From the IMG/VR virus record IMGVR_UViG_3300043427_002668: a stretch of DNA of 64,000 nt, one strand, 5' to 3'. The DNA is from a virus. Its lineage: Duplodnaviria; Caudoviricetes. Below the pieces are notes generated by a model. The model searched no databases. It worked only from the letters and a program-made list of their open reading frames with translations, and was not told where the DNA came from. A program made the translations under genes and the position numbers. Below, one piece after another: positions 43,522-47,299 of the stretch. Position 1 is the first letter of the stretch; each line of letters starts with the position of its first letter.

Positions 43522-43833
43522 ATGTCTCTTACTATTGAACAAATCGAACAACAGATTTCGGATCTCCAAAAAACTTTGGATGAACTGAAAAACCAAAAAC
43601 TCAAAGTATCCCGACACTTCTCTGGGCAATACTTTGAACCTTATCAAGGTAGACTGTATAGGCGAATGGAATCTGACGGAGTACCTCTTTGGGAAACCTA
43701 TCTTGATATTAAAAAAGAATGGGTTATTCTTGATGCAAAAGAAATGATGGAACTTGAAAAGACTTATTTAAATGATTGTGTTTCCTTGAATAAGGAACCT
43801 TCTTCAGAAAGTCTTGAAGAATTTATGAAATAA
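43522..43833 (+). CDS. hypothetical protein
   Basis: 103 aa ORF with N-terminal coiled coil. Confidence 0.7.
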   Translation: MSLTIEQIEQQISDLQKTLDELKNQKLKVSRHFSGQYFEPYQGRLYRRMESDGVPLWETYLDIKKEWVILDAKEMMELEKTYLNDCVSLNKEPSSESLEEFMK

Positions 43834-43873
43834 AAAATAAAGAGTGGTGCTGTAGCATCACTCTTTTAAAGTA

Positions 43874-44152
43874 TTAAGATACTGGAGGAATTGGTTCTAT
43901 TATCGGAACAACATCTGGTGGATTCTTAGAAGATTCTGGAGCAGGATGCATTGATTGATTAATCACAGAATCCTGAATTACATCAGTCATATCTCCAAAG
44001 TTATTAATACTTTGATCTACATCTGCAATCTGACTATCAATTATATTTTTTTGATAGTTGTAGTATGGATTGTAATAATATCTTCTATAATAATAAGGAT
44101 CAATATTATAATATCTCATATAATAAGGATATGGTTGATAGTGGTATTGCAT
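43874..44152 (-). CDS. Tyr-rich protein (92 aa)
   Basis: MQYHYQPYPYYMRYYNIDPYYYRRYYYNPYY...; AGGAG SD before ATG 44152. Confidence 0.7.
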   Translation of the reverse strand: MQYHYQPYPYYMRYYNIDPYYYRRYYYNPYYNYQKNIIDSQIADVDQSINNFGDMTDVIQDSVINQSMHPAPESSKNPPDVVPIIEPIPPVS

Positions 44153-44166
44153 TTTGAATCTCCTAC

Positions 44167-44304
44167 TTAGTAAGGATAGTACGGATAATAAGGATAATAA
44201 GGGCAATATCTATCGTAGTAAGGATAACGCCCATAATAATAAGGATCATAGTAGTCATAGTATCTTCTATGGCAATATGGGTAGTAAGGTCTCGGATAGT
44301 ACAT
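44167..44304 (-). CDS. 45 aa Tyr/Pro-rich peptide (CotT-like composition)
   Basis: 23 of 45 residues are Tyr and 9 are Pro; AGGAG SD before ATG 44304. Confidence 0.65.
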   Translation of the reverse strand: MYYPRPYYPYCHRRYYDYYDPYYYGRYPYYDRYCPYYPYYPYYPY

Positions 44305-45049
44305 TTGAGTCTCCTGTTTGGTTGGATATGTCAAAAGTCCAAATGTCGTATCCTTCTTGTTTGAGGTATTCAAAAGGAATCCAACAGTATCCCTTATCCC
44401 CCCAGCTAGTTCCAAAACTATTCTTTGCTAAGAATAATCTCTTTTCTAAATCATAACCAACCATACACATTGCGTGTCCACCAAGACTTTTTTCTTTTCT
44501 GGAAGGAAAATGTATAGTAGAAATACGTTCATTTAGATCCATAAAACTATCATAAATTTGCATTCCAAATACAACAGGTTTGTTGTTATTCAGCACTTCA
44601 GTAATATAATAAGCACTGATAAGTTTTTGATACTTTAGAACTGTTCTTTTCTTTGCGTCCTCATAGCATTCATCTGTTGGACGATCATCAAACTTGTCTA
44701 AATCATAAGGCCACAAAGATTCAGAACAAACTCCAAACTTTGCTAACGATTTCAAACCATCTCTGAGATAGATTCCATTATCTTCCTGAATATTTCCATA
44801 CTCAGCACGGGTGTTATAGTAAATAAACAACCGACTGAGATGTGTGAAATACTCTGGATATAATTGGTTTACTGATAGTTCATATGCATTAGTGAGTGCA
44901 TTGGAAGAACAACTGCTTAATGAATCTTGCGATTCAACAATCGTATCCCACTCACGAAGATCTACATATTCCCGAAAGGAACTTGTACTATCACTTCTAT
45001 AAATGTAATCTCTTTCATCTGGTTTAGATGGTTTGATGTTGAAGTTCAT
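44267..45049 (-). CDS. papain-family (C1A) cysteine peptidase
   Basis: QDSLSSCSSNA, GGHAMCMVGY, NSFGTSWGDKGY. Confidence 0.9.
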   Translation of the reverse strand: MNFNIKPSKPDERDYIYRSDSTSSFREYVDLREWDTIVESQDSLSSCSSNALTNAYELSVNQLYPEYFTHLSRLFIYYNTRAEYGNIQEDNGIYLRDGLKSLAKFGVCSESLWPYDLDKFDDRPTDECYEDAKKRTVLKYQKLISAYYITEVLNNNKPVVFGMQIYDSFMDLNERISTIHFPSRKEKSLGGHAMCMVGYDLEKRLFLAKNSFGTSWGDKGYCWIPFEYLKQEGYDIWTFDISNQTGDSNVLSETLLPILP

Positions 45050-45051
45050 TG

Positions 45052-45696
45052 TTATAATTTTGCTGAGATAATATACCAATCCCCTTCACGACAAAAAACA
45101 GTGATAACGCCATAAGGTGTAGTGATGATGTAATCATCAGCACCATCAATCAATGCTCCATCGGAAGTTGTGACGGTAACTTTACGATTTCCTAGTGGTG
45201 GTCCCATTTCTGCTTTTACAATGATCTCACAACAATCGGTACAGTTTTCAGGTAATGTAATAGTAACAGGTTCGTTGCTGTTGACGCCGATATAGTAATC
45301 ATCGCAAGTAGCAGCATAATCATCTGAAACCAAGATGCTTTTGCATTTGCAGGTACACACTCCTGGTTCCCCTGGGGGCCCCTGTGGTCCTGGTGGTCCT
45401 TGCTCCCCTGGAGGACCTTGTTCTCCTGCTTCTCCTGGTTCTCCTTGGGGTCCTGGAGGTCCTGGTGGTCCCTGCTCTCCTGGAGGTCCTGGTGGACCTG
45501 GAGGGCACTCATCGGGGCAGTTATCACCATCTATGACAATATTAATGTTGTCATTTCCACCACCACGACTATTCAGCATCTCCGTGATTTCTGCACGAAT
45601 AGACTGAATGTTTCCAAACAGATTTGGATCATTACTTCTCTGGTATTGTGCCAGAAGATTGTAAAGATCAATAAGTCTTCTTTCTGCTGAGTCCAT
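45052..45696 (-). CDS. collagen-like protein (15 Gly-X-Y triplets) flanked by Cys clusters
   Basis: CPDECPP-(GPP/GEQ/GEP)n-VCTCKCK; C-terminal beta-rich domain; AGGAG SD. Confidence 0.85.
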
Positions 45697-45708
45697 AGTT
45701 ACTCTCCT

Positions 45709-45743
45709 TTAAAAGAAGGGGGAGGAAGGTAAAAACCTCCCCC
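45709..45743 (-). terminator. intrinsic terminator (minus strand) inside the cassette
   Basis: GGGGGAGG/CCTCCCCC plus TTCTTTT on the minus strand. Confidence 0.7.
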
Positions 45744-45762
45744 TGATAACTACTGAACTAAA

Positions 45763-46590
45763 TCAGCGTACAGCATTGCTGGTTGATGACTGACCAACAC
45801 CAGCCATGGTTCCGAAGTTAACCATACCCTGACGGGTCTCAGCAATCTGACTGTTTAAAGCATTTAACTGAGAGTTAACTTGTGAAGACAGTGCTGCGAA
45901 CTGGCTATTGAAGAGACCATCTCTGGCACCCCAATAGTCGTGGCGGCAGTGGTTGAGGTCAGTGTTACGCTCAATCAGCATACGATTGAGTTCATCATTC
46001 TTGAGAGAATTGATGAGGTCACGGGTCTTCTCATTTTCATAAGAAACCTGCTTGCTGAGATCATACTTGCTCTCAGCAATCTCTTTGCTGAGTTGTGACT
46101 GTCCAAGTGCTACAGCAGCAGCAACCTTAGCGGACTCAAGTGCAGCAGCAGTAGCAGTCTTCTCAGTGGCAAGAAGAATTTCACTGCTGAGTTTCTGAGC
46201 AGCAAGGTCTTGAGTTGCTCTTAAAGCAGCAAGATCACGGGATTGATCAAAATCTCTTGCCTGACCAGAAATATAGAAATCAGTAGCTCTTTGCTGAATT
46301 TTATCAGCAGCTTCGTCTACTTTAACTGCTGTGTTATGTCCTACGTTCAGAACATCACGGTTGGTTGCTTCTGAATGCTCAGCAATAGCGTATCTGGTAT
46401 CACCAAAACCATTTGCTAATTCTCTACGAATATCGCCTTGACCGATAGCATTAGCATAACGGTTGTCAGCGGAACGAGTAGCAACATCGTAACGGATCTC
46501 ACCACGCTCTACAGAACCTTCTCTACGGATGTCTGAGTGCTGTGCTGAGAGTGCTGCCCAAGGATCGGGCATATAAACTGGATCTGCCAT
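45763..46590 (-). CDS. Ala-rich coiled-coil protein of unknown function
   Basis: 275 aa; repeated DIRRE/DTRY units; AGGAG SD. Confidence 0.8.
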   Translation of the reverse strand: MADPVYMPDPWAALSAQHSDIRREGSVERGEIRYDVATRSADNRYANAIGQGDIRRELANGFGDTRYAIAEHSEATNRDVLNVGHNTAVKVDEAADKIQQRATDFYISGQARDFDQSRDLAALRATQDLAAQKLSSEILLATEKTATAAALESAKVAAAVALGQSQLSKEIAESKYDLSKQVSYENEKTRDLINSLKNDELNRMLIERNTDLNHCRHDYWGARDGLFNSQFAALSSQVNSQLNALNSQIAETRQGMVNFGTMAGVGQSSTSNAVR

Positions 46591-46818
46591 TTTTTTCTCC
46601 TAAAGGTTAATCGGAGAGCAATACAATCCAATTCCTCCCTGACATAATGCCAGACGAATCGAGCCCACAGACGACCATAGGTGAATCGTCTGGGATTATT
46701 TCTCTTTGAAATCGGACTGTATTACCCGATTAGAGATGAAGCATTAATGAAAGAACCATTTTTGGAATCTTTTAGTAATACATCTTATCTCTAATGAGAG
46801 GATTGCTCCTCGCAAGAT

Positions 46819-46826
46819 TATTTATG
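46819..46826 (-). promoter_or_regulatory. late-type promoter (CATAAATA) for the inverted cassette
   Basis: Minus-strand ATAAATA about 230 nt upstream of the 46590 ATG. Confidence 0.5.
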
Positions 46827-46835
46827 TAAATAAGA

Positions 46836-46979
46836 TTATAACCAAGAAATTTCTACTTCACGAGGAACTACTACAATTGATACTTCTGGAAGTTGAGATT
46901 TAGTATTTGCAAGTAAAGTTGCAATTTGTTCTGCAGTGTAAGTGTCTGGTACTTTAAGTACTAATGTTTTTGAATTCAT
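46836..46979 (-). CDS. 47 aa hypothetical protein
   Basis: MNSKTLVLKVPDTYTAEQIATLLANTKSQLPEVSIVVVPREVEISWL read manually. Confidence 0.5.
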   Translation of the reverse strand: MNSKTLVLKVPDTYTAEQIATLLANTKSQLPEVSIVVVPREVEISWL

Positions 46980-47008
46980 AATTTTCAATAGAGTGTACAG
47001 ATTATATA

Positions 47009-47299
47009 TTAAGTTGAACGGTTTTTACGCTCACTTTGCCACTTTAAAAAACCTTCCATATTATTGGGATATTTTGGTTTCCCTCTACCTCTTGGTTTCT
47101 TCTGATTTTTCATTGCAATTTCATAGTTACTCCAACATAATTCAAGTTCTTCTGGACCATTATCGAAGTTATAAAAACCATCTATCCAAAAGTCAAACTG
47201 AGATTCGTTTTTCATATAATTGCACCACAATTTAAATGATGCAAATACGTATAACCATCCAAGTCTGAGTTTTGAAAAGAAGTCTTTGAGTGTAATCAT
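47009..47299 (-). CDS. hypothetical protein
   Basis: 96 aa ORF. Confidence 0.6.
   Translation of the reverse strand: MITLKDFFSKLRLGWLYVFASFKLWCNYMKNESQFDFWIDGFYNFDNGPEELELCWSNYEIAMKNQKKPRGRGKPKYPNNMEGFLKWQSERKNRST

Follow-up and report, generated by a model that had tools for sequence, protein, structure and literature searches.

A conserved late-promoter operon of freshwater T4-like phages encoding a helical rod, collagen-like and tyrosine-rich proteins, tentatively read as an accessory virion appendage module

Gene Content and Conservation of the Operon

In this study, we analyzed a window of 64,000 nucleotides (nt) of viral DNA (Duplodnaviria; Caudoviricetes; IMG/VR record IMGVR_UViG_3300043427_002668) and, in particular, an inverted block of genes within it. 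The window is T4-like cyanomyovirus DNA, in which the region of the block is preceded by psbA and psbD and followed by talC, a plastoquinol terminal oxidase gene, and zwf. Five genes, all on the minus strand and enclosed by plus-strand neighbours, encode a rod protein of 275 amino acids (aa), a collagen-like protein of 214 aa, a papain-family (C1) cysteine peptidase, a peptide of 45 aa rich in Tyr, Pro, and Arg, and a Tyr-rich protein of 92 aa, and we refer to this set as the module. A preliminary description of the locus had reported five co-oriented genes running against the local plus-strand orientation, with the Shine–Dalgarno (SD) sequence AGGAG before four of them; all five were present as reported, and the gene without the AGGAG is that of the peptidase. 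The results below support the view that these genes form a coherent and co-inherited operon with a late promoter.

A scan of IMG/VR with the 275-aa rod protein yielded 51 loci in T4-like phages. According to tblastn and profile searches, most of the 51 loci kept the order of rod protein, collagen-like protein, (paralogue), peptidase, and Tyr-rich protein, and the pair of rod and collagen-like genes was found in all loci except those broken off at or just after the rod gene. Co-occurrence of the gene set in other phage genomes, which the preliminary description had left to be checked, was therefore seen in many loci, and a gene order kept in dozens of loci indicates more than a chance neighbourhood. 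In pairwise comparisons among close relatives, the ratios of nonsynonymous to synonymous substitution rates (dN/dS) of the 45-aa peptide, the 92-aa protein, the rod protein, the collagen-like protein, and the peptidase were 0.105, 0.127, 0.130, 0.135, and 0.155, respectively. All five genes are under purifying selection (dN/dS 0.10–0.16), and the first two values indicate that the Tyr-rich open reading frames (ORFs), whose selection had also been left to be checked, are real genes.

The carriers have capsid genes of the T4 Gp23 type, and they span psbA-carrying cyanophages as well as phages of 250–400 kb without psbA. For example, psbA was present in one complete 258-kb carrier genome and absent from a 400-kb genome and two others. 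In the window, the module occupies the variable region flanked by psbD and talC. The nearest DNA matches of psbA, psbD, talC, the plastoquinol terminal oxidase gene, and zwf were Synechococcus phages with 70–85% identity, and a sequencing-run search showed freshwater metagenomes to be the holders of the window DNA.

The rod family comprises at least 924 proteins, every one of which is annotated as hypothetical and none of which has a Pfam domain. Nothing was found in GenBank phages for the cassette by megablast or for the rod protein by tblastn, and the peptidase matches in these phages sit in unrelated gene contexts. NCBIfam and PHROGs gave no informative names for the module proteins, and we found no description of this module in the literature. 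Among metatranscriptomes, a first search listed no RNA holder and a second search returned small shares in nine runs. Contigs of relatives with 80–90% identity, from four metatranscriptome runs, contained parts of the rod gene, the leader, the peptidase gene, the collagen gene, and the 45-aa gene; the depth of these contigs cannot rank genes and may include DNA carry-over, and it was not used for expression level or stoichiometry. The rod and collagen genes have a GC content of 45–46%, compared with 36.7% for the window, and horizontal acquisition was considered on this basis and rejected, because the codons of Ala, Gly, and Pro explain the excess.

Promoter, Leader, and Terminator

A T4-type late promoter box, CATAAATA, was located at 46819–46826 on the minus strand, in agreement with the late-type promoter first reported for this position. 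It matches seven of the eight bases of TATAAATA, the form present in most relatives. At an aligned position 183–310 nt upstream of the rod start, TATAAATA was found in 14 of 18 distinct cyanophage-clade loci, and the leader alignment shows no variation in the TAAATA columns. As judged from these sequences, the block has the late promoter of a putative T4-type transcription unit.

The promoter is followed by a conserved structured 5' leader of about 230 nt (46591–46818, minus strand), which was defined by alignment and consensus folding and ends in a strong SD (AGGAG). The mean column identity of the leader alignment was 65%. The consensus fold contained three helices with 56 pairs, including a hairpin right after the promoter, and 15 of the pairs showed compensatory changes. 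No Rfam family matched the leader, and we believe that it may be a new mRNA-stabilizing or regulatory leader. The stretch from the leader through the promoter (46591–46826, minus strand) is more conserved than much coding sequence.

Directly after the rod gene, a consensus scan identified an intrinsic terminator or attenuator hairpin, GC-rich and followed by a T-run, at 45722–45743 on the minus strand. Nearly all related loci have a GC-rich hairpin and a U-run behind the stop codon of the rod gene, and the stem sequences of these hairpins are unrelated; the terminator that had been noticed after the first gene is thus conserved in position rather than in stem. Because a late promoter and a structured leader precede the rod gene and a terminator follows it, these signals together argue that the rod protein would be made in excess over the products of the downstream genes, in line with the preliminary description.

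The preliminary description was right about the five genes but not about their being the whole of the inverted block, since two more minus-strand ORFs belong to it. The first, a gene of 96 aa at 47009–47299, stands at the head of the block, and its product has a hydrophobic N-terminus and a basic PRGRGKPK stretch. In the cyanophage clade (16 related loci), a relative of this gene with 50–88% identity always immediately precedes the promoter and leader, and no match was found in GenBank phages. The PRGRGKPK stretch is AT-hook-like, and the gene occupies the place that is held by a LuxR-type regulator in larger phages. The second, an ORF of 50 aa at 46836–46988, lies between the 96-aa gene and the promoter, and its membership of the module is weak because only two related loci have it. 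At the opposite end of the block, a candidate operon-end terminator (43828–43865, minus strand) with a 7-bp stem, a 13-nt loop, and a T-run faces a convergent plus-strand gene; it was read from the sequence and failed the stricter consensus scan that the 45722–45743 hairpin passed.

In the large-phage clade, which lacks psbA, a gene of the LuxR/GerE type with a helix-turn-helix lies directly upstream of the module. Loci L033–L050 have a TAAGTA-N4-5-ATGAGAG element about 60–75 nt upstream of the rod start, with a 5' hairpin immediately after it, and they also share an AAGTATA-like box farther upstream. These boxes are possibly the promoter types of the psbA-lacking phage lineage.

Rod Protein, Tyr-Rich Proteins, and Their Shared Motif

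The rod protein (45763–46590, minus strand) was modelled by AlphaFold as one continuous helix over residues 10–262, with a mean predicted local distance difference test score (pLDDT) of 80.7. It had been described as a coiled-coil protein of 275 aa; the length was confirmed, and the periodicity is one of 11 residues (hendecad) rather than the heptad. The hydrophobicity peaks were at 11.15, 5.45, 3.65, and 2.8 residues, which are harmonics of an 11-residue period and not of the heptad value of 3.5, and the N-terminal third can be read as a series of 11-mers. In 72 of 115 homologues the length equals 275 ± 11n, and such length quanta of 11 fit a register-sensitive rod. The C-terminal tail was modelled as disordered; the last 30 residues are almost invariant in an alignment of sequences that are otherwise 35% identical.

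The peptide of 45 aa (44167–44304, minus strand) overlaps the 3' end of the peptidase gene by 38 nt. It contains 23 Tyr and 9 Pro, exactly as first counted, together with 2 Cys, and is conserved in cyanophage-clade loci. The protein of 92 aa (43874–44152, minus strand) contains 16 Tyr and consists of a Tyr-rich third, a motif of 30 residues, and a Pro-rich end, for which the dN/dS values were 0.077, 0.20, and 0.49, respectively, the Pro-rich tail being fast-evolving. Neither Tyr-rich protein matched anything in Pfam, and NCBIfam gave only a chance-level match for the 92-aa protein (E 0.045, 12.5 bits against a cut-off of 450).

The motif that follows the Tyr-rich third in the 92-aa family is the same as that in the C-terminal tail of the rod protein, and it has the form S-Q-(I/L)-x4-Q-x-(M/I)-x-N-(F/Y/S)-G-x-M-x2-V-x-Q-x-S-x2-N-x-(V/L)-R. 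Twenty-six sequences of the two families could be aligned over it without gaps, with five invariant positions. A profile made from the rod tails only found the 92-aa ORF with an E of 3e-6 and no other ORF of the 115-kb genome record, and it also found Tyr-rich ORFs in both clades. When the motif profile was run against 1.84 billion representative proteins, 146 hits (clusters at 50% identity) were obtained, and all but two of them had one of two architectures. In the first, the protein has 132–446 aa and the motif stands at the extreme C-terminus. In the second, the protein has 43–129 aa and is mostly rich in Tyr, Arg, Pro, and Asp, with a median of 14% Tyr.

Because the rod and the 92-aa protein share this C-terminal motif, they probably dock at one site or to each other, and we infer a common docking or co-assembly function. 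When three collagen end domains and three rod tails were co-folded, the score was 0.00, which counts neither for nor against binding. We also considered a wider reading, in which the motif is a co-assembly tag that joins the hendecad rod to Tyr/Arg-rich disordered proteins. The product would be a new self-assembling, sticky or cross-linked material on or around the particles, such as a coat, a hair layer, or a condensate, with the papain-type enzyme trimming or ligating it, and kinship with known virion proteins would be limited to the collagen end domain. We regard this wider reading as distinctly unlikely.

Collagen-Like Protein and Its End Domain

The collagen-like protein (214 aa; 45052–45696, minus strand), which was characterized by Pfam, alignment, and structural model, is composed of a conserved N-terminal helical hairpin, a Cys cluster, the Gly-X-Y repeat, a second Cys cluster, and a C-terminal beta-sandwich. 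The 15 Gly-X-Y triplets between Cys clusters given in the preliminary description proved to be the exact count. The run of 15 triplets plus GVC covers residues 67–114 without interruption, is long enough to qualify as a triple-helix run, and matched the Pfam Collagen family with an E of 7.7e-11. In the alignment, the number of repeats differs among relatives. Studies have shown that collagen repeats in phages are a classic feature of tail fibres (PMC4621102).

The C-terminal beta-sandwich was well modelled, with a pLDDT of about 90. Using VIA-align, the end domain was matched to a tailspike C-terminal domain (24qj, Z 12.2), the gp10-like domain of CBA120 TSP4 (7rej, Z 11.8), the baseplate protein of Klebsiella phage KP1 (9f4a, Z 11.2), and the Pa223 capsid spike (9ny6, Z 10.1). 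The root-mean-square deviations of these matches were 1.6–2.6, the Foldseek E values were from 1.8e-6 to 1.7e-4, and T4 gp9 and gp10 were lower-ranked in the search. In BFVD, more than 433 viral matches to the end domain were found, including Gp9/Gp10 baseplate (E 1.2e-8), tail-fibre, and minor-tail entries and an uncharacterized protein of the jumbo phage Atu_ph07. The model of the end domain therefore has a predicted gp10-like beta-sandwich fold. At the sequence level, the end domain had one weak match in GenBank phages.

In most loci, one to four additional genes encode paralogues of about 205 aa, which combine fibre-like repeats with the C-terminal domain of the collagen-like protein; the window is without this paralogue. 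The fibre paralogue found nothing in GenBank phages by tblastn, and its profile found nothing meaningful among PDB sequences. In one large phage (L043, 6688–9285), four consecutive proteins share the C-terminal beta-sandwich and two of them have collagen repeats, a row that suggests a local expansion of the fibre set.

Two further genes were seen beside the module in related loci. In the large-phage clade (L033, L034, L038, L043, and L048), an extra conserved protein of 137–220 aa is encoded between the Tyr-rich gene and the paralogue or peptidase gene; its N-terminal part is helical, its long tail is acidic and of low complexity, and it gave no family match, its sole Pfam hit being at chance level. 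In several relatives, for example L005 (9300–9722) and L022 (9390–9812), a DUF7201 coiled-coil protein with a C-terminal membrane segment is encoded on the same strand after the Tyr-rich genes. The window has no such gene at this place.

The collagen repeat between Cys clusters, the extremely Tyr-rich small proteins, and the protease encoded in the same operon recall the surface of Bacillus spores, a likeness of composition only. On this basis, the preliminary description had proposed a spore-coat or exosporium-like kit, cross-linked by dityrosine and disulfides and possibly acquired en bloc from Firmicutes, which would protect virions or infected cells as a surrounding coat or matrix. Such a surface coat would overlap with a virion appendage, and we consider it quite improbable as the explanation of the module. 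For 185,579 bacterial and archaeal species, one genome each was searched by pattern-based motif scans, and neither the rod protein nor the collagen C-terminal domain had a relative among them, so that a Firmicute origin is unsupported within the limits of such scans, and the atlas neighbours of the rod family are viral only. A BclA-like end domain is likewise unsupported, because the best and clear matches of this domain are phage tailspike, gp10-like, and baseplate folds with Z of 10–12. In a search of PDB sequences, the matches of the collagen profile, that to BclA (1wck) included, were confined to the Gly-X-Y repeats, and BclA is absent from the end-domain fold matches listed, which does not by itself exclude it. 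No Pfam or NCBIfam spore-coat family was matched, and the module encodes no oxidase, peroxidase, or transglutaminase. Accessory virion fibres fit this evidence better than a copy of a spore coat.

Peptidase

The peptidase gene (44267–45049, minus strand) encodes 260 aa from its ATG, and the papain family named in the preliminary description was verified by Pfam (PF00112, Peptidase_C1; 48.4 bits against a cut-off of 20.7, E 1.6e-12). The closest solved chain was that of the bacterial enzyme 3ois (E 7.7e-37, residues 7–238), with which the catalytic motifs SC..NA, GGHA..VGYD, and NS.G, carrying Cys, His, and Asn, respectively, are conserved. The peptidase has no inhibitory prodomain or signal peptide, since it starts about 40 residues before the catalytic Cys and its residue 7 aligns to residue 37 of the chain. 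The start lies 2 nt past the stop codon of the collagen gene and has no SD of its own, and because of this distance the peptidase appears to be translationally coupled to the collagen gene. The peptidase is absent from about 40% of the loci, some of which extend for several kb downstream, and is therefore an accessory part of the module. The presence of the peptidase showed no clear correlation by eye with a C-terminal extension of the Tyr-rich protein across the loci, and this comparison was dropped as evidence.

The peptidase could also be the centre of the module, as an effector that acts on the host envelope at lysis or entry with the fibrous proteins as its carriers or targeting subunits. 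In Alicyclobacillus phage MMB025, a 753-aa protein with the annotation endolysin has a related C1 domain as its N-terminal part, the late timing of the module would suit such an action, and tailspike-like end domains often accompany depolymerases. Against this, the peptidase is missing from many loci while the rod and collagen pair is nearly universal, and Pfam found no cell-wall-binding or fibre domain in the peptidase itself. We regard an action on the envelope as highly unlikely.

Possible Function of the Module

The end domain, the family of paralogues, the collagen segment, and the late promoter all point to virion appendages. In this study, we tentatively believed that large T4-like freshwater phages express the operon late as an accessory module for virion appendages, a reading to which we give slightly less than even confidence, and that the virion most likely gains extra fibres, whiskers, or hairs from it. 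In the mechanism that we propose, transcription would start at the T4-type late promoter, and the 5' hairpin, the structured leader, and the strong SD would give a high output of the first product, while the hairpin after the first gene would pass only part of the transcripts to the remaining genes. The product of the first gene would be a helical rod, about 38 nm long and with a period of 11 residues. The collagen-like protein would trimerize, its Cys clusters would staple the trimer, and its gp9/gp10-like C-terminal beta-sandwich would be the attachment or binding domain, as in tailspikes and baseplate proteins. The rod and the 92-aa protein would probably come together through the 30-residue motif, and the Tyr/Arg-rich segments would serve as sticky or cross-linkable material. 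We speculated that the cytoplasmic papain-type peptidase trims one of the components, such as the 92-aa protein at its poorly conserved end.

Several points weigh against the virion appendage. No cultured phage among the GenBank phages searched carries the module, which is known from genes alone and not from virions. Neither the rod nor the Tyr-rich proteins look like any known virion protein, and the same beta-sandwich fold occurs in some non-virion proteins, such as StcE (Z 7.7). To our knowledge, no role in fibre assembly has been established for a protease that lacks both signal peptide and prodomain. Moreover, the module lies outside the structural gene block, in the psbD–talC variable region, and in the large phages a regulator gene of the LuxR/GerE type precedes it, and both features would also suit an accessory role away from the virion.

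The last two features also favour an intracellular structure, in which the hendecad rod would form a filament or scaffold and recruit the Tyr/Arg-rich proteins through the tail motif into the matrix of a condensate or assembly factory, and the protease would remodel this structure or host proteins. Such a structure would agree with the signals that suggest very high expression of the rod alone, with the Tyr/Arg-rich low-complexity segments that stand before the motif in 94 representative small proteins, and with a peptidase without an export signal. Repeats of 11 residues are also found in surface-binding or lipid-binding amphipathic helices, which would count in its favour. In contrast, at least two proteins per locus carry the gp9/gp10-like end domain and point to virion appendages, Cys clusters beside a collagen helix make most sense in an oxidizing, extracellular setting, and a late promoter fits virion parts. 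We consider the intracellular structure rather unlikely, and our tentative preference stays with an accessory appendage of the virion.

The module is common, with its rod family and the 146 motif clusters spread over uncultured freshwater T4-like phages, including cyanophages, and its parts have so far carried neither a name nor an assigned function. The hendecad rod with lengths in steps of 11, the shared tail motif, the gp9/gp10-like fold of the end domain, the conserved terminator, and the structured leader are new here. Whatever the function of the module, a docking-type motif common to a hendecad rod and to Tyr-rich disordered proteins is notable, and so are an attenuator conserved in position after the rod gene and a conserved structured leader before it. 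If extra virion fibres are indeed built, the module would be a candidate determinant of host range or adhesion for phages of freshwater cyanobacteria.

Comparison with Known Systems

The collagen-like fibres and tailspikes of phages, such as T4 gp9/gp10, CBA120 TSP4, and the KP1 baseplate protein, share with the module a Gly-X-Y triple-helix segment and a domain on which the C-terminal beta-sandwich superposes with Z of 10–12, and several paralogues that share one domain are also found in branched fibre complexes. In contrast to these fibres, the end domain of the module has a nearly invariant loop and conserved Cys residues and no sequence-level relative in the cultured phages searched, and its gene belongs to an operon of its own that also encodes a rod, a protease, and Tyr-rich proteins. 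T4 fibritin (wac) is similarly a long and late alpha-helical rod, and both rods have at the C-terminus a short conserved element from which folding or docking could start. However, no sequence similarity was found between the two rods, and no fibritin match was found for the module rod in Pfam or PHROG. The period of 11 residues differs from the heptads of fibritin, and the tail is modelled as disordered where fibritin has a foldon.

With BclA and CotT, Bacillus likewise has a collagen-like surface filament beside small proteins that are very rich in Tyr, and proteolytic maturation is possible in both systems. The module differs from them in an end domain whose best matches are phage fibre folds, in having no bacterial relatives among the genomes scanned, and in giving no family-level match; for CotT, the likeness of the Tyr-rich proteins is one of composition only. 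The peptidase resembles the xylellain-type papain-family enzyme 3ois in its sequence and catalytic motifs, whereas it is without the N-terminal extension of that enzyme and is embedded in a fibre-type operon.

Hair-like tail appendages have been described on the T4-superfamily jumbo phages vB_PcaM_CBB and PhAPEC6, and the genes for them are still unidentified (PMC5259590). The rod of the module has no relative in GenBank phage records, and the link to these hairs is therefore one of analogy only. The analogy is that of accessory fibres on large T4-related virions, and another jumbo phage, Atu_ph07, shares the fold of the end domain. If the module does build extra virion fibres, the hair-like appendages of large myoviruses would become accessible at the level of genes.

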